From positions 95,488 to 159,487 of the forward strand of contig DAOMOX010000003.1 in assembly GCA_035444565.1 (NCBI GenBank): DNA of 64,000 nucleotides, read 5' to 3'. The notes under the pieces are model-generated. The model was not told the DNA's origin. It did no database searches and saw only the letters and a program-made list of their open reading frames with translations. How positions within the stretch are numbered: position 1 is the first letter of the stretch; the number at the start of each line of letters is the position of its first letter. Both the position numbers and the translations under genes were made by a program. This document shows, piece after piece, positions 1 to 51,109 of this stretch. This stretch comes from Candidatus Dojkabacteria bacterium (GTDB taxonomy: Bacteria > Patescibacteriota > Dojkabacteria > B142 > OLB20).

Positions 1-2
1 CC

Positions 3-254
3 ATCATAGAAAAATTACCAGATGTGAACATTTTGATAGCTGAAATTGAAGATTCGAAATTAGACAAAAAGTTACAAATTGTATCAGACATAGAACCTGA
101 CATCTTTGTGCCTCTTGTTGATAAATCTAAGTTAGAAGACATCAAAAAAGCATTGGGCGTTGCGAATATTGAATCTGTGCCTACTTTAAACGTTGCTCAA
201 AAGGACTTTGATAGTGAATCATCTGAACTATTAGTGTATTTATTAAATAACTAA
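3..254 (+). CDS. Hypothetical protein, 3' fragment. The frame is open back to the window start; the ORF track calls it 24..254.
   Basis: No stop codon lies upstream in frame before the window edge. No motif recognised. Confidence 0.3.
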   Translation: MIEKLPDVNILIAEIEDSKLDKKLQIVSDIEPDIFVPLVDKSKLEDIKKALGVANIESVPTLNVAQKDFDSESSELLVYLLNN

Positions 255-257
255 AAA

Positions 258-1574
258 TTGGAAATCAAGTTACCTCCACAAAATCTCGATGCAGAGAAAT
301 CTGTTTTAGGTGCCATTCTTCTTGACTCAGAGGCAATATATAAAATTGCAGAGATAATTACTTCCGAAGATTTCTACGACAAAACGAACGGATTAATATT
401 TAAATCCTGTATTGAGCTATTCTCTAATCAAAAAGCTGTTGACGTGTTAACGCTCTCTAGTGTTCTCAAAAAAAAGAAAAAACTAGCAGATGTTGGTGGA
501 GTAAAGTTCTTGTCGGATCTAGTAAGCAGTGTTCCTACTTCAGCACATGTTGAAGAATACGCTCGATTAGTAAAAGAAACATCCTTAAGAAGAAAAATAA
601 TTTCATTGTCATCAAATTTGGAAAGGATGTCATATGAAGAGGACAAGGAACTTTCAGAGCTTCTTGATCAAGCTGAAAAAGCACTTGTTCAAATTTCTGA
701 AACAAGTAGTAAAAGTGACTTCGTTCATATAAGTACATTACTTGAAGATGCATATGAAAGAGCAGAGGAATTGAACAAAAACCCAGGAGCAGTAAGAGGT
801 GTAGCTACTGGCTTTTTATATTTAGACAATTTACTAGGTGGATTACAAAAATCGGATTTAATTATCCTAGCCGCAAGACCATCCGTGGGTAAGACCGCGT
901 TTTCATTAGATATAGCAAGGCATGCCGCAGTTACCGATAAAAAAACAGTCGCTGTCTTTTCATTGGAAATGTCTAGTGCACAGTTGATGGATAGGTTACT
1001 CTCAATGCAAGTAGGAGTGGGCTTGTGGGATCTTAGAACCGGTAGAATCAAGGACGAATTTTTTCCAAAGATATCAGATGCTATGGGAATGCTTTCGGAA
1101 ACAAATCTTTACATTGATGATACCCCAGGTATAAGTATTATGGAGTTGAGGTCAAAAGCAAGGAAATTAAAATTAGAAAAAGGTTTGGATATGATTGTGG
1201 TTGATTATCTCCAATTGATTGTGGGGAATAATCGAGAGGGTCGGGTTCAGGAAGTGTCAGAAATATCAAGATATCTTAAGGGTATTGCTAGGGAGCTGAA
1301 TGTTCCAGTTTTAGCACTTTCACAATTAAGTCGAGCAATTGAACAAAGATCAGATGGAAATCCGATGTTGTCCGATCTTCGAGATTCCGGTTCAATCGAA
1401 CAGGATGCTGATATCGTTCTGTTTCTAAGTAGAGTAGGAGGAGATGGGGAAAATAGCGATAATAGAACACTTACCGTCGCAAAGCATAGAAATGGTCCTA
1501 CTGGTGCAGTTGAATTATTCTTTGTTAAAGAGATGGCAAGATTTAAAGAAATTGATAGATACCATCAGCAATAA
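258..1574 (+). CDS. dnaB: Replicative DNA helicase DnaB
   Basis: N-terminal DnaB fold (LDAEKSVLGAILLD), Walker A ARPSVGKTAFSLDIA, and RecA-like C-terminal motifs. TTG start. Confidence 0.9.
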   Translation: MEIKLPPQNLDAEKSVLGAILLDSEAIYKIAEIITSEDFYDKTNGLIFKSCIELFSNQKAVDVLTLSSVLKKKKKLADVGGVKFLSDLVSSVPTSAHVEEYARLVKETSLRRKIISLSSNLERMSYEEDKELSELLDQAEKALVQISETSSKSDFVHISTLLEDAYERAEELNKNPGAVRGVATGFLYLDNLLGGLQKSDLIILAARPSVGKTAFSLDIARHAAVTDKKTVAVFSLEMSSAQLMDRLLSMQVGVGLWDLRTGRIKDEFFPKISDAMGMLSETNLYIDDTPGISIMELRSKARKLKLEKGLDMIVVDYLQLIVGNNREGRVQEVSEISRYLKGIARELNVPVLALSQLSRAIEQRSDGNPMLSDLRDSGSIEQDADIVLFLSRVGGDGENSDNRTLTVAKHRNGPTGAVELFFVKEMARFKEIDRYHQQ

Positions 1575-1610
1575 AAATATGTTAAATTTAATAATTATTA
1601 AATTACTTAT

Positions 1611-1949
1611 ATGACTAATCCACAAAACGCTAGTATGCCTAAAGATCAAAATGTGCTTTCATTTATGATGCAATTGGTTCAAGAAAAATATGGAGATGAG
1701 ACAGAGATAGAGTTCCTAAATCAAGAATCTGACAGACTCTACGATATGTTTGGTAATAACCTTGTAGATTATTTTGAACCTATGCTTTCTGAAGAACAGA
1801 AACTACAATTCGATCAATTAGTTGCGACCAACCCAGAACAAGAAAGACTTTTGGAATTTCTAATAACTAATATTCCAAATTTAGAACAACAAATACTTCA
1901 GGTATTGGTAAATTTCAGAAACGAATATCTAAGTACCCCACAATCTTAA
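1611..1949 (+). CDS. Hypothetical acidic protein
   Basis: ORF only; no recognisable motif. Confidence 0.35.
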   Translation: MTNPQNASMPKDQNVLSFMMQLVQEKYGDETEIEFLNQESDRLYDMFGNNLVDYFEPMLSEEQKLQFDQLVATNPEQERLLEFLITNIPNLEQQILQVLVNFRNEYLSTPQS

Positions 1950-1965
1950 TATAGCCAGTTTAACT

Positions 1966-2457
1966 ATGGCAGGTGCTCAAGCTAGCATTAACAAAATTAA
2001 GGCTGAAACGCTTACCCTAGAAAGCCAAAAACAAGAAGCAATGAAAGGTAGGGGAAAGCTAAAAGAAGCCGTTTCTGCTATGAAAAATCAACGTAATGAA
2101 ATACAGTCCAATTTAAAACGGATGTATGGAGGTCTTGACCAAATAAATGGTGCTATAAATAGCGTAAAGAACCACCCTTTGGGGCCAGACCATCCACAGG
2201 TAGCGGAACAGTTAGGCAAGTTACGTGCACAGAAAGAGCAAATTATTGGTCAAATCTCATACCTTAAAAAAGGTATGAAGGATATTGGAAATAGAATTAA
2301 TGAATATTCAGGAAAACTTGAATCATTGAATCAAAATATTGAAATGATGGGTTCTGCTGTTAGTGCTAGGAAAGCTGCCTTACAAAAGATTGCAGGGCAA
2401 ATGGCTGCCCAAATTGGTTTAAACTCAAATAGAGAATTGGGAAGAAAAAAGGGATAG
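1966..2457 (+). CDS. Hypothetical coiled-coil protein
   Basis: Heptad-like K/E/Q-rich sequence. No catalytic motif. Confidence 0.35.
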   Translation: MAGAQASINKIKAETLTLESQKQEAMKGRGKLKEAVSAMKNQRNEIQSNLKRMYGGLDQINGAINSVKNHPLGPDHPQVAEQLGKLRAQKEQIIGQISYLKKGMKDIGNRINEYSGKLESLNQNIEMMGSAVSARKAALQKIAGQMAAQIGLNSNRELGRKKG

Positions 2458-2601
2458 GGAACTATTAATTTCAGGGATTTCCCGCTATAATCGATGTACG
2501 TTTTCCATGATTAATGGTCTACTAACGTATATATTGCCAAGATGGCGGAATTCCTCTTCGCCCAGAATAGTCGGGCTACGAGGAACAAGTTGGTAAATAT
2601 A

Positions 2602-2685
2602 GCCAAGATGGCGGAATTGGTAGACGCGCCGGACTCAAAATCCGGTCCCTTCACGGGGGTGTGGGTTCGATTCCCTCTCTTGGCA
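2602..2685 (+). tRNA. tRNA-Leu (anticodon CAA), CCA not encoded
   Basis: Acceptor stem GCCAAGA/TCTTGGC, anticodon loop CTCAAAA, long variable arm, and T-arm GGTTCGATTCC. Confidence 0.85.
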
Positions 2686-2714
2686 TGTTAAATAATTAAA
2701 GTAAACATTGTGAA

Positions 2715-3278
2715 ATGGCATATCTAGCAAGTAATTCATTAAGAGAAGGTTCTCTTTTTATTTATGACGGTCAGAAATATATCGTCTTAAAATACCAACA
2801 CATTAAAAAGGGTAGAGGACAAGCAGTCATTAGAGTCAAAGTTCAAAATATTGTCACAAGATCTAATACAGAACTCACTTTTAGTAATGAAGAAAAATTA
2901 GAAGAATTCACAGCAGAGAAGAAGTCCGCACAGTTTTTATATAGTGAAGGAGACAGTTACTACTTCATGGACAATGAAAATTTTGAACAGTACGAACTCA
3001 ACCGAGAGATTCTTGGTACAAAGGCTGATTTTCTCTACGAAGGATTGAAAGTTGTAGTTTTATTCGTAGAAGACGAACCTTTGAGCATTGATTTACCCAA
3101 ATCTGTTGTATTAGAAGTTATCGATACCGAACCTGCAGTTGCTGGTAATACAGCAACAGGAGCTTCAAAAGTCGCCAAAGTTGGGAATAATCTGAACATT
3201 CTAGTTCCGTTATTTATAAAGGTTGGAGATAAAATCAAGATTAACACAGAGACCGGGAAATATTCATCCCGCGAATAA
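2715..3278 (+). CDS. efp: Elongation factor P
   Basis: KKGRGQ loop and the three-domain EF-P sequence pattern; length 187 aa. Confidence 0.9.
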   Translation: MAYLASNSLREGSLFIYDGQKYIVLKYQHIKKGRGQAVIRVKVQNIVTRSNTELTFSNEEKLEEFTAEKKSAQFLYSEGDSYYFMDNENFEQYELNREILGTKADFLYEGLKVVVLFVEDEPLSIDLPKSVVLEVIDTEPAVAGNTATGASKVAKVGNNLNILVPLFIKVGDKIKINTETGKYSSRE

Positions 3279-3297
3279 TATTTTTTATATTTGATAG

Positions 3298-3999
3298 ATG
3301 GTAAATTTTATTTTAGAACTCATCAGTTTTAACGAAGGAATTGATTATTCGGTAGTTACAAAGATTGTGGTTGTATATTTAGTGTTATTATGGGTTTTTG
3401 TATCTGTTTGGGTATTTAATGATGCCAAATCTAGATTTAACAATCTTTTGGTAGCAGGTATCTTGGCTTTGTTGAACTTGGTACTCTCTTTTCCATTTCT
3501 ACTGATTTATTTATTAATTAGACCCAGTCACAGAGACGAATGGGATGATTCTCCTGAAGGAGGAATCAATATTCCTGTTGCTAACTTTACTGGAAAAGAA
3601 GGGGTAGTGATTTCCTTACAGTTGAAAATCGACACTAAGAAAATTCTTGAAGAGAAGATTGATTATAATCTTGATGTAGCATTGAACAAAGAGAATGAAG
3701 AGCCCACAATTGGGAAGATTGAAATATCTGCTCAGGATGGTGCAGTTGTGAGTCTCGACAATCAAAATGATAACACTACTAATAAACGTAAATTATTACC
3801 TAATTTGAAAAGTAAAATTTCAGATATGGTTTCAAGCTTGAAAGAGAGGCTAGATAGAGATGATGATAACTATGATGATAAAGATGATGACGAAGAAGAA
3901 GATAATGATGTTAGTGAAATTAGTACAGAAAATGAGGTAATTTCTACTTCGAAAAAAAAGAAAAAAAATAAGAAAGGTAAAAAGAAAAAGAATAGATAA
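3298..3999 (+). CDS. Membrane protein with an acidic then poly-lysine C-terminal tail
   Basis: Two N-terminal hydrophobic helices; D/E-rich stretch followed by KKKKKNKKGKKKKNR. Confidence 0.4.
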   Translation: MVNFILELISFNEGIDYSVVTKIVVVYLVLLWVFVSVWVFNDAKSRFNNLLVAGILALLNLVLSFPFLLIYLLIRPSHRDEWDDSPEGGINIPVANFTGKEGVVISLQLKIDTKKILEEKIDYNLDVALNKENEEPTIGKIEISAQDGAVVSLDNQNDNTTNKRKLLPNLKSKISDMVSSLKERLDRDDDNYDDKDDDEEEDNDVSEISTENEVISTSKKKKKNKKGKKKKNR

Positions 4000-5270
4000 T
4001 GAAAAAACCGAATTATTTTGTCAAAGAGTCCAAGTTATCAAACAATCTCCCATATACATTTATCAATGGTTTGGATGTGCAGTCGGTAACGATTATGTTA
4101 TTGGTTGCTATTGGTTCGCGACATGAAGACGAAAAGTTTTCGGGTACTGCACATTTTCTTGAACACATGTTTTTTAAAGGATCCTCAATGCACCCTACAA
4201 GTAATAAGCTTGCGATGGCGATGGAGATGTTGGGAGGGTTATCTAATGCATTCACATCATACGACTACACAGGCTACTACATAAAGGTTCCGCTGAAAAA
4301 TTTTGAAAAAGCCGTTGAATTAATTGCGGATATAATTGTAAATCCGATTTTCCGGAAAGAAGAATTTGAGAAGGAAAAAGGAGTTATAGAAGAGGAAATT
4401 CGAATGTATGATGATCTTCCTTCCGAAAAAATAAAAGATGAATTTAATAAATCATTGTTCGTTAACCATCCTCTAGGAAGAAATATTGCGGGTACTACCC
4501 ATACTTTGGCAAATATAGTAGTAGAAACAATATCGGATTTTAAGGCTAATCACTACCTACCAAAAAATATGCAATTGATTATTGCTGGTGCATTAAATGA
4601 GGATTTTGCATTACAAATTGCTGAGAAATATTTTGCACAACTGAAGGATAACAAAATTCAAGAAAAAGCTATTGCTGATTCAATAAGTCGTTTTGGAGAT
4701 TTATCTACAAAACTTTTACATATCAAAAAGAAAACAGAACAATCACACGTTGTCGTAGGAGGAATTTCTTATGAAAGGAATCACCCTCTAGAATATCCTA
4801 TGAAGATTGGTATGACACTTTTATCCGATGGATTTGGGAGTAGACTATTTCAGAATTTGAGGGAAAAGCATGGAATTGCTTATTATATTGGTGGTGGTGT
4901 GGCAACTTATGAGGACGTAGGTAAATTCTATGTCAGAGCTGGAATTGCAAATAGTTCAACACAGAAGGGGATTGATGAAGTCATTAATTCTTTCAAAGAC
5001 ATTTCCTCAGGTTCTTTTTCGCAAGAGGAGTTAGACAGAGCAAAGAATTATCACATTTCATCGATTCTAGACAATATTGAAACAGGAGAAGATAAAGCAG
5101 GATGGTATGGTATATCTAAAATATTGAATAAGAAATACAAAACCCCGGACCAACAATTGAGAGAAATTGAACTAATTACAAAAGAAGATATAATTCAGGC
5201 ATGGGAAGGCGTAATCAGAGATAGTAATATTCTTGTAGCAATTATATCCGAGAAAGATATAAAATATTAA
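3999..5270 (+). CDS. M16-family (insulinase-like) zinc peptidase
   Basis: Inverted zinc motif HFLEHMFFKG (HxxEH). Confidence 0.8.
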   Translation: MKKPNYFVKESKLSNNLPYTFINGLDVQSVTIMLLVAIGSRHEDEKFSGTAHFLEHMFFKGSSMHPTSNKLAMAMEMLGGLSNAFTSYDYTGYYIKVPLKNFEKAVELIADIIVNPIFRKEEFEKEKGVIEEEIRMYDDLPSEKIKDEFNKSLFVNHPLGRNIAGTTHTLANIVVETISDFKANHYLPKNMQLIIAGALNEDFALQIAEKYFAQLKDNKIQEKAIADSISRFGDLSTKLLHIKKKTEQSHVVVGGISYERNHPLEYPMKIGMTLLSDGFGSRLFQNLREKHGIAYYIGGGVATYEDVGKFYVRAGIANSSTQKGIDEVINSFKDISSGSFSQEELDRAKNYHISSILDNIETGEDKAGWYGISKILNKKYKTPDQQLREIELITKEDIIQAWEGVIRDSNILVAIISEKDIKY

Positions 5271-5307
5271 TAAGAACGAAACATAATTAGTTTAATTTTA
5301 TTATTCG

Positions 5308-6207
5308 ATGGATTTATTTAATTATCCAAAGACTCTGGGACTGCTAATATTTGTGGTAGTTTTCACATATCTCTCTTGGAAAACATTTATCGGAAAATTC
5401 AAACACGAAAAGTTATTTGATTTTACTTTCTTGTATCTATTCTTTGGATTTCTGACAGAAAGGACTCTCTTCATTGTTACTAACTGGATAGATGTAAATA
5501 ATTTACAATGGTCTTTTGTAAGTTTTGTAAATACACTTCCAATTTCTTTGCTAAACTTCGATTTGTTTTCAGGATTCTCATTAATCTATTTTTTCATAGG
5601 GGCGATTTTTGGGATTAGTCTTTATAACTTCATAAATACCATCCAAAAAGTTGAATATAATACTCTAGATCGTATTACCAGATTGGCAATACTCTGCCTT
5701 CTACCATCAGTACTTCTGGGTATGATTTTTACTTTCATTGATACAGGTAGGAGTGGAGCAGAATTCGATATCTCTTTGTATATTCCCAACTTAGTTAGAC
5801 TTTTCGAATTTGTACTTCTATTGGCGATCTTTAATTTCTTTAATAATTTTTGGTTGGCAAAGAGTGGGTTATATACAAGCATCTCTGTATTATTTATAAC
5901 TATTGGAGAAATTATTCTTGATTATCTTGATCCTTCTTATGTTCCCAATTTTTTTGGAATTATAAATTATCACCAAATTATTGGTGTTCTCTCTATAATC
6001 CTTTCGATTAACTTGCTCCTTACTTCAATAGCAACATTACAAGAACAAGAGATTAGGAAAAAACTGAAACCACTAAAGCCGAGTATGAACAAAGGGTTTG
6101 CGATATCTTTCGCAAATCGTAGAAGAGTTTCAAATCCGATTAATATTAAAATTAAGAACCTTACATCAAATAAAAGAAAATATCGAGATTCAATAAATAG
6201 GCCATGA
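5308..6207 (+). CDS. Polytopic membrane protein. A prolipoprotein diacylglyceryl transferase role is a guess based only on its position upstream of lspA.
   Basis: Multiple hydrophobic segments; no confident Lgt signature seen. Confidence 0.3.
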   Translation: MDLFNYPKTLGLLIFVVVFTYLSWKTFIGKFKHEKLFDFTFLYLFFGFLTERTLFIVTNWIDVNNLQWSFVSFVNTLPISLLNFDLFSGFSLIYFFIGAIFGISLYNFINTIQKVEYNTLDRITRLAILCLLPSVLLGMIFTFIDTGRSGAEFDISLYIPNLVRLFEFVLLLAIFNFFNNFWLAKSGLYTSISVLFITIGEIILDYLDPSYVPNFFGIINYHQIIGVLSIILSINLLLTSIATLQEQEIRKKLKPLKPSMNKGFAISFANRRRVSNPINIKIKNLTSNKRKYRDSINRP

Positions 6208-6611
6208 TGATATTTCTATTCTTCCTCTTTGTTGTAGATAGTGTGTTGAAGTTATACTTCGTGAATTATGGTAGTTACGTTTTAAACCCAGGAGTAGCTT
6301 TCGGTATCATTGGAGCCAATCCAGGATTGGTTCAGATTACTCATATCTTTTTAACATGTGTGTTAGTTTTATATTTGTATAAAATTGATTCTAATATTCG
6401 GGTTAAATGTTCAATATCAGCAGTGATTCTGGGCTCAATTTCAAACTTGTTAGATAGATTTATGTATAATGGGGTAGTGGATTATATCGGAGTGTGGATT
6501 TTCCCAAAGTTCAATATAGCAGATTTAATGGTAGTATTTGGTGCATTGTTACTTATAATTTTTGAATTTTATGAATATTACAAAAAAAATAAAAGTAGAG
6601 GAACATCATGA
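6204..6611 (+). CDS. lspA: Lipoprotein signal peptidase II
   Basis: Motifs NPGVAFG, NLLDR, GVVDYIG and FNIAD. Confidence 0.8.
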   Translation: MMIFLFFLFVVDSVLKLYFVNYGSYVLNPGVAFGIIGANPGLVQITHIFLTCVLVLYLYKIDSNIRVKCSISAVILGSISNLLDRFMYNGVVDYIGVWIFPKFNIADLMVVFGALLLIIFEFYEYYKKNKSRGTS

Positions 6612-7491
6612 GGGTAAGAGATTAGATTTATTTCTTGCATTTGAGTTTAACAACTTAACAAGATCAGTTGTAAAAAAACAAATAGAGTCAGGAAATGTCA
6701 AAGTTGATAATGTGATTGAATATAGACCCAATTATAAGGTTAAGAAGAATGATGAAATATTTTGCGAATTTATAATTGAGGACAAAGGTGGTGATCAAAT
6801 TGTACCTCAAGATATCCCATTGAAAATCATCTATGAAGATGAGCACTTGGTAGCAATTGATAAGCCAGTAGGAATGGTTGTACACCCATCAACATCTAAT
6901 TGGGATTCGACTTTGTTAAATGCGTTATTCTACAAATACTCCAATTTAACGGCTGTGGGAGATTCAAAAAGATCTGGTTTAATCCATAGATTAGACAAGG
7001 ATACATCCGGAATTGTTTTAGTTGGAAAAACAAACGAAGGATTATGGTATTACTCTAAATTATTCGCCGATAGAAAAATCGAAAAGACTTACTTGGCAGT
7101 CGTTAAGGGGGACTATTATGACAAATTCGGACCTGTAGAACAAATAGTCGATAACTATTTGGGGAGAAATCAAATAAATAGAAAAAAATTTGCTAAAGTT
7201 CCCCCGAGTAAAGGGAAGAAAGCCATAACAGCGATAACATTTTTAAGAACATTAGAATATCAAAGTCAAATTTATAGTCTTTTGAAGGTTATGCCCAAGA
7301 CTGGTCGAACACACCAAATCCGTGTACATCTTTCTGAACTTGGTTTTCCAATTCTGGGAGATATCATTTATGGAAAGGGGACTGCATATCCTCGACTGAT
7401 GTTGCATGCTTGGAAACTGAAGTTAAGGTTGCTGTCTGGTGAAATGACGGAATTAGAAGCTATCCCAGATGAATCATTTAACAATTTGTAA
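6562..7491 (+). CDS. rluD: RluA/RluD-family 23S rRNA pseudouridine synthase. The start is uncertain; this call overlaps lspA by 50 nt.
   Basis: N-terminal S4 domain and catalytic HRLDKDTSG motif. Confidence 0.8.
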   Translation: MNFMNITKKIKVEEHHEGKRLDLFLAFEFNNLTRSVVKKQIESGNVKVDNVIEYRPNYKVKKNDEIFCEFIIEDKGGDQIVPQDIPLKIIYEDEHLVAIDKPVGMVVHPSTSNWDSTLLNALFYKYSNLTAVGDSKRSGLIHRLDKDTSGIVLVGKTNEGLWYYSKLFADRKIEKTYLAVVKGDYYDKFGPVEQIVDNYLGRNQINRKKFAKVPPSKGKKAITAITFLRTLEYQSQIYSLLKVMPKTGRTHQIRVHLSELGFPILGDIIYGKGTAYPRLMLHAWKLKLRLLSGEMTELEAIPDESFNNL

Positions 7492-7499
7492 TCAAAATA

Positions 7500-8753
7500 A
7501 TGTTTGGAAGAAAAATATTCAGTCTTCGGAATAGGGTAAAAAGAAAAAAGACAACAAAGTCTGGCATGAAAATCACTTCCAGCTATGTGTTTTCTGGAAT
7601 ATTTTTGACACTTCTAATAATTTTTATCGCTCTGATAACCCCTGTAGTGAATGCAATGATAAGGTTTGAACCAAATACCGACTTCGGCAATCAAGACGCT
7701 CAAAAATGGGATTACAGTCAAAAATTTAAAGTACTATTAGTCGGCTTAGATAGGAAAAGTGAAGAGCATGTTTTTGTCGATGCAGTTGCGTTACTTGTAG
7801 TAGATCCTAAGTACGATCAGGTTGGAATCGTCAATATTAATCCAGATATTATGGTTAATGATTCAATTGATGAGACACAAATCTCGTTAAGACGTGGTTT
7901 GATAGATAATAAAAATGGAAATATTGTCGGTTTAGCAGAGGAATTATTAGCGACAAAAATTGACAGATATATTTATGTGGACGAGGTATTTTTTGACAAA
8001 ATGTCGAGGTATACTAAAACTATACACCTTGATAATTCGAGTGATGTAGAAGATCTCGATATATACATAAATGATAGTTCGGCTAAGTGGCAAAAAGGTA
8101 GACACAGTATACAAAGTGGGCAAATTATGGATTACGTAAGAAGTGATAATGATGGAGAGGATAAACAACTGGAGAGACAGTTAGAATTATACAAGAGGTA
8201 TGTCCAAAGTATAGACGTCTCGAAACTCATTCTTGGAACCACTGAGGTCTTGAGAATTATTGAAGATGAGGTTAATACAAATCTCACCCGAAATGAGATC
8301 TACTATCTGTATTACTTTCTCAGAAGAGTACCTCCCACATCTTATAGTTATGCAATAACTAAAAGTGATATACTATCAGAGGTCGGACGTGCTGGTGTTT
8401 ATAATGTATACAGGTTTAATGAGGCTCAATTAGACTACAATACGAATTCGATTTTAGAAAATAAGCAGACTGTTTTTGAACAAACAACCATTGAAGTTCT
8501 AAATGCTAGTGGACAATCTGGTAGAGCAAAGAGGTATTCAAGATGGGTTGGAAATGTAGGACTGGAGGTTATTCACGTAGGTAATGCACCTTTTGCAAGC
8601 GATGATACAGTTGTTTATGCACCAAGTCCAAGTGAATATCCAAATTCGTTTAGAAATCTTAAAGAAATCTTCGGTCAGGATGTTAAAATTATTGAAGAAG
8701 AGTATGATTATAGACACATAGGGAGGGTTGTTGTAGTAATTGGAAAACAATAA
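7500..8753 (+). CDS. LytR-CpsA-Psr (LCP) family cell-envelope protein
   Basis: N-terminal TM anchor, LCP core (LLVGLDRK...VDAVALLVVDP), and a LytR_C-like C-terminus. Confidence 0.65.
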   Translation: MFGRKIFSLRNRVKRKKTTKSGMKITSSYVFSGIFLTLLIIFIALITPVVNAMIRFEPNTDFGNQDAQKWDYSQKFKVLLVGLDRKSEEHVFVDAVALLVVDPKYDQVGIVNINPDIMVNDSIDETQISLRRGLIDNKNGNIVGLAEELLATKIDRYIYVDEVFFDKMSRYTKTIHLDNSSDVEDLDIYINDSSAKWQKGRHSIQSGQIMDYVRSDNDGEDKQLERQLELYKRYVQSIDVSKLILGTTEVLRIIEDEVNTNLTRNEIYYLYYFLRRVPPTSYSYAITKSDILSEVGRAGVYNVYRFNEAQLDYNTNSILENKQTVFEQTTIEVLNASGQSGRAKRYSRWVGNVGLEVIHVGNAPFASDDTVVYAPSPSEYPNSFRNLKEIFGQDVKIIEEEYDYRHIGRVVVVIGKQ

Positions 8754-8778
8754 ATATATTAATTATTAATCAAATTAC

Positions 8779-9570
8779 ATGTCGGGACACTCTAAATGGG
8801 CGAAAATCAAAAGACAAAAAGGTGTTAATGATGTCAAAAGGGGTAATCTTTTCACCAAACTTGCAAAAAATATCACTCTAGCCGCAAAAGAGGGTGGTGG
8901 AGACATCGGAATGAACTTTACCCTCAGATTGGCAGTAGATAAAGCAAAAGTTGCCAATATGCCCTCTGACAACATACAAAGAGCAATTGACAAGGGGACT
9001 GGTAAAGGTTCTGATGGAGTAGTTTATCATAGGGTAACATACGAAGCTCTTGGTCCTGGTGGAGTTGCGGTGTTAGTGGATTGTCAGACTGACAACACGA
9101 ATCGAACTGTATCGGAAGTGAGAAATATGATTGAAACTAATGGTGGTAAGATGGCATCAACTGGTAGCATTTCTTGGCAATTTACCGAAAAAGGTTTGAT
9201 TATTGTCGGGCTCACTAAGATACTACCCAGTAAGCAATTTGGGAAAGATAACGATTATCTCTCGATTGATGCGGAGGAAGCAGAAATTGAGCTTTTTGAA
9301 ATTGAAGGTATCGAAGATTTGAACAAAGTGGAGTGGTTGGTTGAGGATGAAGAGGTTGATGCTTTTGAATTAATCACAGTTAAAGAAGATTTCAGTAAAG
9401 TATTAAAAAGTATCGAACAATTAAATTATAAGATTTTGTCAGCCGAATTAGTAAAAGTTCCAAACGAGAAAGTTGAGGTTAATGATGAAAAGACTTTAGA
9501 AAAAATTAACGATTTTGTACAAAACTTAGAAGATCACGACGATGTTGATTCAGTTTGGACAAATAATTAG
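8779..9570 (+). CDS. yebC: YebC/PmpR family DNA-binding regulator
   Basis: MSGHSKWAKIKRQKG N-terminus. Confidence 0.9.
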   Translation: MSGHSKWAKIKRQKGVNDVKRGNLFTKLAKNITLAAKEGGGDIGMNFTLRLAVDKAKVANMPSDNIQRAIDKGTGKGSDGVVYHRVTYEALGPGGVAVLVDCQTDNTNRTVSEVRNMIETNGGKMASTGSISWQFTEKGLIIVGLTKILPSKQFGKDNDYLSIDAEEAEIELFEIEGIEDLNKVEWLVEDEEVDAFELITVKEDFSKVLKSIEQLNYKILSAELVKVPNEKVEVNDEKTLEKINDFVQNLEDHDDVDSVWTNN

Positions 9571-12864: not shown

Positions 12865-13962
12865 ATGGATGATTTCGACAAGTATAATAAGGAAATAGTA
12901 AGCCAGATGCCTTTAATAGAGGATTTCTTTTATGACCTTATAAATAATAATTATTCAGGGAAAACAGTATCTAACTATCAAAGAGATTTATTAGTTTTTG
13001 CGAGTTTTCTATATTCACAGAAATTAAAATTTAAAGAAATCGGGAAATTAGATTTAATTAAATACAAAGACTATTTACGTAATGGGAAATATTTAAAAGA
13101 TTTAAAATTCCTCTATAATAACGAAAATGTCACCGATGATCGTGAAAATCCACTCCCTGAAACGCAACACAAAGAATCGAGCTCTAAGGCATCTAGAAGG
13201 CTTTCTATGTATCAAGGTCGACTTGGAAGTCGCAGTGTAAATCGTATGTTATCAGCATTAAGGAGTTATTTTAGATTTTTGACAGATGCGGATGAAAAAG
13301 TTCCAATTCCTGCAGATGCGATAAAATTAATTAAAACTGAAAAAGTCGTTTCAAATGTTGCTGACTTAGATGAATTAATTTCTTTAATTGAATCTCCAGA
13401 AAATTTTGAAAAGAAAAAAAATGTTCGTTACAGAAACCGTGCAATGTTGGAATTATTATTTTCAACTGGTATGAGAATTTCTGAACTTATAAATTTGAAT
13501 CTTGAAGATTTGAAACTTGATGAGTCTAAAAAAGTTATACAAGATGACAGAATTTTCATCACTGGTAAAGGAAAAAAGCAAAGATTTGTTTATCTCACAG
13601 AACGTGCAAAACATTATCTGGAAAGGTATCTGATGACTCGTGATGACGAATATAAGGCCTTGTTTATACCTTATAGAGGATCTCGGCTAGGTACTGAAAA
13701 TCCTTATGCAGTAAGAGTTTCGGTGAATTATTTACAATATAAAATTAAACAATACAGAACTCGTCTTGGTATAAATATTCCTACTTCCGCGCACAGTCTT
13801 AGGCACGGTTTTGCTACTTATTTATCCGAAAATGGTGCAAATCCGGCTTCAATTCAACGACTTCTTGGTCATGAATCATTACAAACGACAAGCCGTTACG
13901 TTCATACGAGCGACAAGGTCGCACAAAAATCTCATAAAGAATTCCATCCATTAAAAGAGTAG
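12865..13962 (+). CDS. Xer-type tyrosine site-specific recombinase with an extended N-terminal domain
   Basis: C-terminal box HSLRHGFAT...LLGHESLQTTSRYVH with catalytic R, H-x-x-R and Y. Confidence 0.8.
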   Translation: MDDFDKYNKEIVSQMPLIEDFFYDLINNNYSGKTVSNYQRDLLVFASFLYSQKLKFKEIGKLDLIKYKDYLRNGKYLKDLKFLYNNENVTDDRENPLPETQHKESSSKASRRLSMYQGRLGSRSVNRMLSALRSYFRFLTDADEKVPIPADAIKLIKTEKVVSNVADLDELISLIESPENFEKKKNVRYRNRAMLELLFSTGMRISELINLNLEDLKLDESKKVIQDDRIFITGKGKKQRFVYLTERAKHYLERYLMTRDDEYKALFIPYRGSRLGTENPYAVRVSVNYLQYKIKQYRTRLGINIPTSAHSLRHGFATYLSENGANPASIQRLLGHESLQTTSRYVHTSDKVAQKSHKEFHPLKE

Positions 13963-47651: not shown

Positions 47652-48168
47652 ATATTTGTAAGAATTTGATGAGTGAAGTATGTACTAAACAATTTTTATA
47701 AGGAATGGCTGGCTTTCTCGGACTTAAGCTCTAAGAATAATGAGCATCTTCGTTTATAGTGATCATAAATTAGGCAAAATGAAGATTATGTAAAACATAC
47801 TCTAGTCATTTTGCACTCTCGAGTCTTGTTTCTATTCGACTTCACTTCGTTTGTCTCATAGACAAGATCGGAGCAGCGCAAGGCTGTTCCCGACAACGGT
47901 AAAGTTCGTCTTCACTTCGTTCGACTCACTAATTGTTTCGTAAAGGCGCAGCAAGCTGCATCCTCATTCTACTTTATTAAACGGAGGCAAAAAGAATATT
48001 TTGTAAAACAAAATCTAATCTTTTTGCACTCTCGCCAGTGTATTTACTCGTAAACTCGTAAACACTCGCGGAGAGCATGGAACTTCGCTCGAACTTTTTT
48101 TCTTAAGTATCCGCAGATAAAGATACAAATACCTAATGTCTCTTTCAATTATATTAAAGGAAAACACA

Positions 48169-49014
48169 TTATTCAAAATTTTTAATATCTCTCCATATTT
48201 GTAAATAACTCTGTAAATCCTCAGGGTGATGCTTGCGACATGAAGATATCCTTTTAAATAGAGAAATCTTAAGAAAATCTGATTTCCGATCTAAGTTAAT
48301 TGGGAAGATTTTTAGAAACCTTGATAGACATGTATCGTAGTTTTTAGGATTAATTTGCTCAGGAGTAGAGCAAAAAGCAAATAAGAGATCATATAAAGGG
48401 TGACCTATTATTGGATCGGGATCAATTATCCCTAGAGGTTTATCAAACGTGTAGAAGATATTATGAAATCCGAAATCACCATGAATCAGATACTTCGTTG
48501 AGAAGTAATCATGAGAGTATCTTATTTTTATCAGGTCAACCAGTGAATTTAATTCGTCCACTTGAAAAATATCCGAGATATATTTATATGCTTCCTGCGA
48601 TTGCTTAATAATGAAGTCAGCAAAAGACTTAGCTGTAAGAAATCCACTAAGAAACCCAAATCTTTCAGTTTGGGAAATTATTTTATACTTGCTTAAGAAC
48701 GATTCTGTAAGAATCTCTAATATTTCTATCTTGCTGTAGTTTTCACGCAATTTCTTTAAATCTAGATAATCGATTATAAGCTCGTCTGGTTTTGAATATA
48801 TTAATCTAGGTAGGTAAGGTAATTCTGAGTATTCTTTGTAGAAAAACGCTTGTGGAGAGATCGAGTTAACAGCACCTGATTTATATACATATTTTCTGTT
48901 TTTTGACGTTTTTAGGAGAAATATATTATCGCCAGACCCACCAGATAATCTCCTTGAAGAAGTGATCTCACAATCTAATATTAGTTCAATCTCCTGTACT
49001 TTTTTATGATTCAT
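48169..49014 (-). CDS. Aminoglycoside/choline-kinase-like phosphotransferase (APH fold)
   Basis: LIHGDFGFHNI catalytic loop and IIDPD. Confidence 0.65.
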   Translation of the reverse strand: MNHKKVQEIELILDCEITSSRRLSGGSGDNIFLLKTSKNRKYVYKSGAVNSISPQAFFYKEYSELPYLPRLIYSKPDELIIDYLDLKKLRENYSKIEILEILTESFLSKYKIISQTERFGFLSGFLTAKSFADFIIKQSQEAYKYISDIFQVDELNSLVDLIKIRYSHDYFSTKYLIHGDFGFHNIFYTFDKPLGIIDPDPIIGHPLYDLLFAFCSTPEQINPKNYDTCLSRFLKIFPINLDRKSDFLKISLFKRISSCRKHHPEDLQSYLQIWRDIKNFE

Positions 49015-49141
49015 ATTACATGTAAATTTTCACTCGAACATATGAATTATGACTTGAATAAAGCGTTAGTTTAAGCTTAAAAACCTACCGTTCTATCCTC
49101 CCTAAAATTTTAGTGCTTGCATATAAGCCTTATCGAAGATT

Positions 49142-49226
49142 CGGAGAGGACAGGATTCGAACCTGCGGTCCCTTGCGGAACATTGGTTTTCAAGACCAAC
49201 TCATTAGACCACTCTGACACCTCTCC
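49142..49226 (-). tRNA. tRNA-Ser (anticodon UGA), CCA not encoded
   Basis: Minus strand reads GGAGAGG...CUUGAAA...long variable arm...GGUUCGAAUCC...CCUCUCC-G. Confidence 0.85.
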
Positions 49227-49536
49227 ATATTAAATTGTAACACTTAGGTTTTTCCCTCTTCGCTATGCTACGAGGGACTAATTCGCGTAAGTTCGCCTTA
49301 TGGCTCACTAACCGCTCATTGAGCAAGACCAGCTCATTAGACTTCATCCCGCCTTGGCGGGACAAGCTCTGACACCTCTCCATATTAAATTGTAACACTT
49401 AGGTTTTTCCCTCTTCGCTATGCTACGAGGGACTAATTCGCGTAAGTTCGCCTTATGGCTCACTAACCGCTCATTGAGCAAGACCAGCTCATTAGACTTC
49501 ATCCCGCCTTGGCGGGACAAGCTCTGACACCTCTCC
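49227..49536. repeat. Two identical 155-bp tandem units immediately 5' of tRNA-Ser, each carrying a tRNA-Ser 5'-half-like segment
   Basis: Direct reading: 49227-49381 equals 49382-49536. ORF-track ORFs 49204..49398 and 49344..49538 are translation echoes of the repeat. Confidence 0.85.
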
Positions 49537-49880
49537 ATATTAAATTGTAATTGATTGGTTTTTCCCCTACGGGGATCAGTTCAGGTAAACTCTCCCCTCT
49601 TCTGACTTTGTCAGCAGATGGGATTGTTAACCCTTCACAGTCTAGACCAGCTCAAAATGCTCTGCTTGCCCTTCGGAGCCTTGGCAAAGAAGGGACACCT
49701 CTCCATTTTTTCTACGAAATTGGGAATTTCTATTAAATTGTAATACCTTGGTTTTTCCCCTATGGGGATTAATTCGCATAAGCTCGCACTACGTTTCGCT
49801 TGTGCTTGCTAACTCCTTAGTTATAAGACCAACACTATAAACATCATCCTACACTTACTTGAAGTGTAGGACATTCTCTT
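49537..49880. repeat. Two further diverged copies of the same unit
   Basis: Unit boundaries ATTAAATTGTAA, GGTTTTTCCCC-TAY-GGGG hairpin, and CACCTCTCCAT end recur at 49537 and 49731. Confidence 0.7.
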
Positions 49881-50050
49881 CCCGCAAATTCTTATGGATA
49901 AATTATATCAGATATATTCTTATATTCTAATTTTCCTAAACTTCTCTCCAATTCATTTGTTTTAATATGTTGTAATCTTTATTATTTATTTTAAAAAGAG
50001 AGGTAATTTGTATATACAATATAAATAATTAGAAAAAGAATTATTGGTGA

Positions 50051-51109
50051 TTATTCTGATAATAGAAATTCAGTAAGAATTGCTTGATACTTTCTAAGGC
50101 TTGATATGCTAACCCATTCCTTATCAGTTCCGATTCCACCCCCAACAGGACCAAATTCTACTCCTGCGCAATTTACTTCTGTGAAATGTCTTGCATCAGA
50201 TGAACCATTTGCACCATAAAATTTTACAGAGTTTTTTGTGAAATTCGATACAATTCTTTGTAGTTTTATTAAATTAGGATCTGTCTCTTTTACATATAAA
50301 CTGGGTTCATTTACTACGATTTCAATTTCAAAAGTATTATCTAACAATGACTTAATATTATCTAAAATTGTTTCGCTATCTTCGGGTATATAACGGATAT
50401 CTAAATCTATAGTGCATTTATCTGGGATTTTATTGAAACTCTCGTTTGTGGTAGAAATATTACTTAAATTCAAAGTAGATTGCCAAGAATCTTTTAGGGG
50501 AATGGGAAAAGTCTTTTCAAGCTGAGTCAATAAATTATGCATCTTCCAAATTGCGTTTTTCCCTCGCCATGGATATGCTCCATGAGCTGTTTTTCCCTTT
50601 GTTGTTATTCTCAGCCAGATAATACCTTTAGCTTTATTCACTATATTAAATCCTGTAGATTCACCTGCAATAACGAAATTACTTCTTACCCCTTCTTGTA
50701 TTTGGTACTTGGTTCCATCAAATCCACCAGTTTCTTCATCTGTAACTAACTGTAGTCCAAGTGGATATTTTACTTTTTTAGCAACATTGTTAAAAACAGA
50801 AACAAGTGAGGCGACGTTACCCTTCATGTCCATTGCCCCGACACCATATAATCTATCACCTGTAATTACGGGAGTAAATTGTTTTTCTTTCCCAGGTATA
50901 ATATCAAGATGACCATTTAAAATATACTTGAAAATTTTAGGTCGTTTACTTCTGTTATACACTAAAACACTATTTTTCCCGTTTGATTTAAAATTCTCAA
51001 TAGTATAATCAGTTAGAGAGCTCAAACATAAATCTAATGCTTCATTTAAAGCCTTTGTATTTCCTGGAATAGTTTTGATTCTAATTAATTTTTTAGTTAG
51101 ATTAAGCAT
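50051..51109 (-). CDS. M20-family metallopeptidase/deacylase (ArgE/DapE-like). Start taken at MLNLTKK.
   Basis: GHLDIIPG...GVGAMDMKGNVAS metal-binding motifs. Confidence 0.7.
   Translation of the reverse strand: MLNLTKKLIRIKTIPGNTKALNEALDLCLSSLTDYTIENFKSNGKNSVLVYNRSKRPKIFKYILNGHLDIIPGKEKQFTPVITGDRLYGVGAMDMKGNVASLVSVFNNVAKKVKYPLGLQLVTDEETGGFDGTKYQIQEGVRSNFVIAGESTGFNIVNKAKGIIWLRITTKGKTAHGAYPWRGKNAIWKMHNLLTQLEKTFPIPLKDSWQSTLNLSNISTTNESFNKIPDKCTIDLDIRYIPEDSETILDNIKSLLDNTFEIEIVVNEPSLYVKETDPNLIKLQRIVSNFTKNSVKFYGANGSSDARHFTEVNCAGVEFGPVGGGIGTDKEWVSISSLRKYQAILTEFLLSE

Follow-up and report, generated by a model that had tools for sequence, protein, structure and literature searches.

Stacked tRNA-Ser 5' fragments upstream of a Dojkabacteria tRNA-Ser(UGA) gene, most likely a pile of recombination scars

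The 64,000-nucleotide stretch of the Candidatus Dojkabacteria bacterium genome analysed here (GenBank assembly GCA_035444565.1, contig DAOMOX010000003.1, positions 95,488 to 159,487; hereafter the window) carries four head-to-tail units directly upstream of its tRNA-Ser(UGA) gene. The units run along the tRNA strand (minus) out to about position 49883, and each of them opens with the 5' part of tRNA-Ser itself. The array is real, and it is a fluid feature of one tRNA locus that is conserved across a clade of the Candidate Phyla Radiation (CPR). Most probably it is a heap of scars left by recombination. The preferred account of these scars, held tentatively, is that tRNA-Ser 5' fragments were displaced by site-specific integration and later reshuffled by unequal homologous recombination. 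Loci from other assemblies that were compared with the window are designated L001, L003, L128 and so on.

Architecture of the array

The functional gene, the four units and the block that closes them are located as follows.

49142 to 49226, minus strand: functional tRNA-Ser(UGA), the final 'unit' of the stack (49141/2 to 49226/7, depending on the caller), found by ARAGORN and by Rfam RF00005 at 59.1 bits
49227 to 49381, minus strand: unit 1, 155 bp, comprising tRNA positions 1-15, a 25-nt D-loop hairpin, tRNA positions ~19-35, an R core, a terminal hairpin and an A/T block
49382 to 49536, minus strand: unit 2, 100% identical to unit 1
49537 to 49704, minus strand: unit 3, 168 bp, with a hairpin after tRNA position 10, tRNA homology to ~33, a longer R core and the terminal hairpin CCCCGTAGGGG (49564-49574)
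49731 to 49883, minus strand: unit 4, the most diverged, with a decayed 5' part, a hairpin at 49847-49871, an R core and the terminal hairpin CCCCATAGGGG (49757-49767)
49227 to 49240, minus strand: A/T-rich block TTACAATTTAATAT, abutting +1 of the tRNA or of the next unit, with TACAAT at -13 to -8 and copies at 49382-49395, 49537-49550 and 49731-49743

The initial annotation, made from the letters alone, described two perfect 155-bp units and two diverged ones, and this description was confirmed by two repeat programs. Tandem Repeats Finder reported a period of 155 with 2.2 copies and 100% matches at 49212-49550, and a repeat search returned the 155-nt pair at 100% identity together with an 82% repeat (49538-49592 versus 49731-49785). 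Across alignable parts the identity of units 3 and 4 is 73-82%. The layout of units 1 and 2 is also as first described: on the tRNA strand they begin with GGAGAGGTGTCAGAG, CTTGTCCCGCCAAGGCGGGATGAAG and TCTAATGAGCTGGTCTTG in that order and end with CCCTCGTAGCATAGCGAAGAGGG, AAAAACC and TTACAATTTAATAT. The unit-end motif ATTAAATTGTAA has exactly four occurrences, one at the end of each unit. One detail of that description is corrected: the inserted hairpin follows position 15 only in units 1 and 2, and in unit 3 it follows tRNA position 10.

In the unit 1 type, homology to the tRNA extends through the second base of the anticodon (standard position 35) and then stops. The L128 orthologue of this unit, from a different organism, reproduces tRNA positions 1-35 exactly and diverges inside the anticodon, and the same break between positions 35 and 36 is found in three lineages (window, L128, L140). 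The break of the short unit type lies in the D-loop, as does that of a direct repeat at tRNA-Leu (see below). Copies of the first 13 tRNA nucleotides are located at -155 and -310 for tRNA-Ser and at -66 for tRNA-Leu. Resemblance to the tRNA declines with distance from it, from units 1 and 2 to unit 3 to unit 4. Two peculiarities of the gene itself may be recorded. The anticodon stem contains a T-A pair, a compensatory difference from the C-G retained in relatives and in the units of the window itself. The gene does not encode its CCA (49141), whereas the L128 copy has CCA after the gene (526-528).

The A/T block, in the form TACAATTTAATAT abutting +1, is kept in four lineages (window, L128, L129, L138-140), and a second block type, AAAAAAGAATAATATT, closes the short units. 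The block is a putative promoter, and only putative because a simple promoter scan of the units found no -35/-10 pair.

Two familiar identities were discarded for the array, in agreement with the initial annotation. It is not a CRISPR array, as the units are 153-168 bp long and homologous over their whole length rather than short repeats with unique spacers. It is not coding either: no conserved open reading frame (ORF) is present in the units, and because 155 is not a multiple of 3 the 64-aa ORFs change frame from one unit to the next; a 22-nt length difference in L128 disrupts them as well. In the Rfam search only tRNA reached the gathering score (the two tRNA genes), nothing credible was obtained at E <= 10 in 48800-50300, and tmRNA, Y RNA-like RNA and other Rfam families gave no match.

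A comparison of copy number, as had been proposed, revealed one identical 155-bp copy in one independent assembly (L003, 2.5x coverage) and two in another (L004). Several contigs stop within the array or the tRNA, and the exact number of identical copies is uncertain in these short-read assemblies. That contigs break here and that the low-coverage assembly has one copy rather than two would suit a spurious expansion of the repeat by the assembler. Nonetheless, such an artefact is highly improbable for the array as a whole, given that the diverged units 3 and 4 were assembled identically from independent samples and that related arrays occur in four other assemblies from different species. The suggestion that the motif might be absent from relatives and the copies an assembly product thus does not apply to the whole array; only the count of identical copies may be an assembly matter.

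A rival account needs no mobile element. Slippage or illegitimate recombination could have duplicated the upstream region together with the tRNA 5' part, followed by unequal crossing-over and decay. The perfect identity and head-to-tail order of units 1 and 2, the one or two copies seen across assemblies and the same promoter-proximal block in every unit are what such a purely local tandem duplication predicts, and no integrase is found nearby. However, breakpoints within tRNA loops in independent unit types speak against it, and, together with the evidence from tRNA-Leu and from relatives presented below, they leave a purely local origin somewhat unlikely.

Hairpins, the R core and the tRNA-Leu counterpart

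Each unit of the window contains structured modules, which recur in part at a second tRNA gene.

49342 to 49366, minus strand: 25-nt hairpin in the D-loop part of unit 1, in place of TGG; unit 2 copy at 49497-49521; absent in the L128 orthologous unit and identical in L129 unit A
49275 to 49323, minus strand: R-core hairpin of unit 1, arranged S1-GUU-S2-GA-S3-loop-S3'-GA-S2'-UA-S1' (covariance model R1); other copies at 49430-49478, 49573-49642 and 49766-49824
49254 to 49276, minus strand: terminal hairpin of unit 1, CCCTCGTAGC-ATA-GCGAAGAGGG, followed by AAAAACC; copy at 49409-49431; arms common to the tRNA-Leu hairpin
2527 to 2618, plus strand: upstream structure of tRNA-Leu(CAA), with two direct copies of a 26-nt sequence (the 9 nt from upstream joined to tRNA positions 1-17), at 2527-2552 and 2593-2618, and a 40-nt insert between them

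The hairpin in the D-loop part follows position 15 in units 1 and 2 and position 10 in unit 3, as it also does in the L128, L129 and L138-140 short units, and both insertions are present in L129 unit A. Their stems differ around a (C)AAG loop. Since the L128 unit is tRNA 1-35 without an insert, the D-loop hairpins are secondary insertions. Palindromic insertions enter the D-loop part of dead fragments.

Among seven distinct copies of the R core, 95% of cells are standard pairs and 7 of 9 pairs are changed on both sides, with the structure derived from the same seven sequences on which the pairing was scored. These values were reached by none of 500 shuffles, and slid controls were 7-43% paired. 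The unpaired GUU, GA/GA and UA are conserved. The R core looks as if it were under structural constraint. A covariance model, proposed at the outset as a check, was built from the collected R cores; it matched solely at tRNA-Ser loci (186 kb and 66 kb searched). As regards a dispersed miniature repeat (REP/MITE-like), which would have many scattered intergenic copies, R cores and hairpin arms occur within the 64 kb only beside tRNA-Ser and tRNA-Leu, and in other loci only at tRNA-Ser. Confinement of the R core to this locus in about 250 kb searched makes it look like native upstream sequence, a further point for local duplication. It does not appear to be a decayed tRNA 3' half, as its similarity to that half was not significant (37-80% of shuffles equal the score). 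Putative 3' remnants at 47880-47960 are a mere possibility, being equalled in score by 26% of shuffles.

The terminal hairpin differs between the window and L140 by a compensatory change, CCCTC/GAGGG to CCCAC/GTGGG. Folding of the array beats shuffles on both strands (z = -5.2 for the tRNA strand and -4.9 for the other). The tRNA strand is the more stable (-159 versus -142 kcal/mol), and G-U pairs favour it too.

The arms CCTCTTCGC...GCTACGAGG occur in three places in the window (2553-2583, 49255-49275 and 49410-49430) and in 0 of 100 shuffles. The first place is upstream of tRNA-Leu, where the initial annotation had already located them. There the 40-nt insert consists mostly of the hairpin CCTCTTCGC-N13-GCTACGAGG (2553-2583), with arms common to units 1 and 2, and the same tRNA-Leu structure is present in two further assemblies of the species. 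Because it combines repeat, insert and repeat, it is not a plain tandem duplication, as the local account would require, whereas an insertion carrying a copy of its target gives this arrangement. The arm matches listed from other genomes were chance hits in GC-rich DNA; among those listed, one in a contig assigned to 'Patescibacteria' (L107; 53% GC, no tRNA nearby) was set aside as probably due to chance. Logan contigs begin exactly at the tRNA-Leu +1.

The pairing evidence bears on a further reading, in which the units serve the tRNA-Ser transcription unit as functional RNA or as regulatory modules. They would act either as tandem promoters with structured leaders or as sources of tRNA-derived small RNAs made from the TACAAT block, and selection would maintain the hairpins, which might be signals for processing or stability or a decoy that binds a protein. 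The R-core pairing with its conserved unpaired bases, the differing D-loop stems around a (C)AAG loop and the compensatory change in the terminal hairpin all agree with it, but the distinct R cores number just seven, and they are also the source of the structure. The folding energy and the G-U pairs favour the tRNA strand; however, the hairpin shared by tRNA-Leu and tRNA-Ser is the same on the plus strand at both loci and is therefore inverted relative to the two tRNAs, so that the two RNAs would differ. Similarly, the TACAATTTAATAT block is conserved in four lineages, but unit number, order and composition vary, the simple scan gave no -35/-10 pair and no Rfam family was matched. Hairpins can, moreover, be created and repaired by replication template switching without selection. 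A functional RNA is accordingly judged unlikely, although it does not exclude the other two accounts: integration, local duplication and function as RNA are compatible with one another.

The locus in related Dojkabacteria

The proteins encoded around the tRNA mark the window as DNA of a CPR bacterium, and its HAD phosphatase has a 100% identical counterpart listed in NCBI under Candidatus Dojkabacteria. Three other lineages of Dojkabacteria (L128, L129 and L138-140) have related arrays upstream of this tRNA, and unit number, order and hairpin content vary among them. L128 and L129, whose upstream genes are 93% identical, carry the arrays Ub-Ua-tRNA and UA-UB-tRNA, respectively, and L129 contains a fused unit. 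L138-140 have one partial unit of the unit 1 type and one short unit. In L141, which is more distant, a tRNA-Ser(GCU) lies upstream of the HAD gene without units. The M20 gene upstream has orthologues in L006 and L007, which lack synteny to the tRNA.

The modules are shared in a mosaic manner. Any two of the HAD proteins from the window species, L129 and L140 share only 64-67% identity; despite this distance the 51-nt unit head of L129 is identical to that of L140, and the 25-nt hairpin of the window is identical in L129. The L128 unit is 97% identical to unit 1. Conversely, the inner hairpin is not the same in L138 and L140, although their HAD protein is. This pattern points to modules being exchanged or recombined and not simply decaying in vertical descent, and both of its sides are difficult to reconcile with duplication that is purely local. 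The stack has been remodelled by unequal homologous recombination between 5' fragments, which alters copy number and order and makes fused units; it accounts for the identical unit pair, the one or two copies across assemblies, the permuted orders and the fused unit of L129.

A separate case of joined tRNA sequence was observed at a contig end (L001 1-60, GCA_035444845.1), where a tRNA-Ser(GCU)-like anticodon arm (ACTGCTAACGAAGTGTCTC) is joined to the variable and T arms of the window tRNA-Ser(UGA) and to its downstream flank. Either the assembly is chimeric across a 3' part common to both sequences, or two tRNA-Ser genes have genuinely exchanged sequence.

The tRNA gene takes insertions at its 3' end as well. 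In the window this concerns the following segment.

47868 to 49140, minus strand: 1.27-kb segment between the tRNA 3' end and the conserved downstream flank, with a 281-aa ORF (48169-49014); absent in L129 and L140

The flank ATCTTGTCTATGAG... directly follows the tRNA in L129 and L140, whereas in the window it restarts at 47867; the 1.27 kb is therefore an insertion or deletion at the tRNA 3' end. Its edges are CTCCGAATCTT at the tRNA end and CTCCGATCTT at 47868-47877. The 281-aa ORF has no family besides a weak fructosamine-kinase-like match. At this locus in a sister genome (L136 and L137, HAD 92% identical), a prophage-like block of more than 9 kb (1-9216) abuts a decayed unit and a tRNA-Ser 3' remnant. 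It encodes an S24 CI-like repressor, an HTH_17 excisionase-like protein, an HNH nuclease, two D12 DNA methylases, a SEC-C motif protein and several proteins without a family. Neither an intact tRNA-Ser nor an integrase was found within the 10 kb examined. The genes after the tRNA also differ in L138-140. The locus is an insertion hot spot in relatives, and a site that demonstrably accepts foreign DNA fits poorly with a history of local duplication only.

Further repeated sequence was noted downstream. The intergenic region 47652-48168, between the 281-aa ORF and the HAD gene, contains repeated modules with long hairpins (GAGAGTGCAAAA...TTTTGCCTCCG) and R-like stretches (TTAGTGAG...CGAACTTTACCG). 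These modules directly follow tRNA-Ser in L129 and L140 and are duplicated in L134, and several end in CTCCG like the tRNA 3' end. The M1-type modules downstream of the tRNA are R-like by eye, and model R1 gave no match to them at E <= 1. A conserved 'pseudo-tRNA' lies downstream in L134 (4590-4710) and L140 (3806-3942). A decayed 5'-like start (GGAGCGACTTGGATGAG) leads into a small hairpin, which is followed by an R core and another hairpin. The module closes with GAATCCTGTCCTTTACG, the decayed T-arm and 3' end of a tRNA-Ser, and looks like a unit fused to a tRNA 3' part.

Origin of the array and comparison with known systems

The initial annotation offered an integration footprint, a promoter or leader module and small RNAs as options. 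The first of these is favoured here, in combination with unequal recombination, although the integrase-carrying element with a 5' fragment that it calls for was not found. In the proposed mechanism, integrative elements of a minority class would carry the 5' part of their target tRNA gene and recombine with the gene. With each event the promoter and 5' fragment already in place would be moved upstream, and the copy brought in by the element would keep the tRNA intact; the element interiors would be lost afterwards. A displaced fragment would then comprise the promoter-proximal A/T block and the tRNA up to a loop, which is the anticodon loop in the unit 1 type and the D-loop in the short type, and the modules of 100-130 bp between fragments (R-core hairpin, terminal hairpin and A-rich tract) would be what remains of the elements.

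Integration is preferred because 5' fragments lie upstream in the orientation of the gene, the break falls in the anticodon loop, relatives have an insertion hot spot here and the modules are mosaic. The stacking of the fragments and the older look of the outer copies also fit integration of the 5'-carrying kind. Several observations weigh against it. No integrase is present in or near the units, and no phage-type integrase adjoins tRNA-Ser or tRNA-Leu. The sole recombinase of the 64-kb window is Xer-like and located 35 kb from tRNA-Ser.

12865 to 13962: tyrosine recombinase of 365 aa, just downstream of ruvC-ruvA-ruvB, with best matches to XerC/XerD under their curated cut-offs

This protein is probably the chromosome-dimer resolvase. 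The window is otherwise an ordinary piece of core chromosome, with genes for DnaB, EF-P, RuvCAB, gyrase, type IV pilus components, RNase III, PBP1 and M20 peptidases. An integrase-bearing element bounded by a 5' fragment was not found in the loci examined: the L136/L137 block appears to lie on the 3' side and its far end is beyond the 10 kb, and no 5' fragment is seen to border this block or the 1.27-kb cassette. What separates the fragments is strangely uniform and short (100-130 bp), some breaks lie in the D-loop, which is no recognised crossover sublocation (the anticodon loop and the T-stem region are), and the compensatory changes and conserved unpaired bases of the R core are unexpected for decaying element ends. 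Finally, viral contigs yielded no attP-like sequence when scanned for the A/T block, the tRNA-Ser 5' part, the left end of R, the tRNA-Leu 5' part, the R-core pattern, the block plus tRNA start and the unit 3 head.

Individual hits from the viral contigs were rejected. Three hits match AATTTAATATGGAGAGGTGT, with no tRNA or R-core match in any of the three, and in L152, the one that was read, the match is the ribosome-binding site of a phage gene. The match in L150 overlaps an ORF start in a contig of 60% GC.

In a further reading the units are not scars. They would be tRNA-Ser-derived structured elements maintained and exchanged among Dojkabacteria, an idea given rather little weight here. In one version each unit may be transcribed from its own TACAAT block at +1 as a small RNA, with the R-core and (C)AAG hairpins as binding sites, for example in a decoy or regulator tied to tRNA-Ser. 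In the other, the unit may be a miniature, attP-only integrative module that is mobilised in trans and stacks at the tRNA 5' end.

The favoured combination of integration and recombination has counterparts among genomic islands in tRNA genes. In the Islander survey, 159 of 3919 islands had 5' fragments and 2083 had anticodon-centred attP sites (PMC4383910), and successive integrations of the tycheposons of Prochlorococcus leave partial tRNAs (bioRxiv 10.1101/2020.12.28.424599). The Dojkabacteria locus resembles these islands in its intact tRNA with partial copies in the same orientation, 5' fragments upstream, the anticodon-loop break, the foreign DNA taken in by relatives and the stacking of fragments of which the farther ones look older. 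It differs in that neither integrase nor cargo separates the fragments, each 'island' here being 100-130 bp. The stack also occupies the rarer 5' side, with some of its breaks in the D-loop, and the inter-fragment hairpin shows compensatory changes.

Repeats that arise beside tRNA genes offer a second comparison. In E. coli tyrT, 178-bp repeats carry the 3' end of tRNA-Tyr. Plastid trnF has tandem pseudogene arrays produced by unequal crossing-over (PMC3786074). As in both of these, the units are arranged head-to-tail beside a functional tRNA, each has a partial tRNA copy and a spacer, and copy number varies, here among short-read assemblies. In contrast to them, the unit body (R core) has no similarity to the rest of the tRNA, the modules are mosaic across distant species, hairpins are inserted in the D-loop part and the tRNA-Leu case is no plain tandem duplication.

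Two other systems share single features with the array. Integron attC sites are recombination sites that act as folded hairpins. They share with the R core unpaired bases that are conserved, stems that covary and a terminal loop whose length varies widely, as well as a tandem, cassette-like order. However, the R-box consensus (RYYYAAC/GTTRRRY) is absent, no integron integrase is present nearby and the units have no genes, and an attC-like identity was therefore rejected. Group I introns are reported to interrupt tRNA-Asn and tRNA-Asp at position 35/36 in Patescibacteria (bioRxiv 10.1101/2025.07.03.662931), that is, at the same anticodon break and in the same phylum. This identity was rejected too, as the break is followed after ~105 nt by a complete tRNA from position 1 (+1) rather than by a 3' exon, the base before it is G and not U, and no Intron_gpI match was obtained even at E <= 10.

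CPR genomes are tiny and streamlined, and little is known of how they take up foreign DNA. The Dojkabacteria tRNA-Ser gene is a two-sided landing pad, with 5' fragments upstream and cassettes and a prophage-like block downstream. In practical terms, short-read assemblies break at the array, and tRNA annotation could be misled by the pseudo-5'-halves that it contains. If the R core functions as RNA, it would be an undescribed structured motif. If the fragments do derive from integration, the rare 5' type of tRNA integration would be documented in CPR bacteria, and the combination of A/T block, tRNA 1-35 and R core would provide a sequence handle for their mobile elements and phages.

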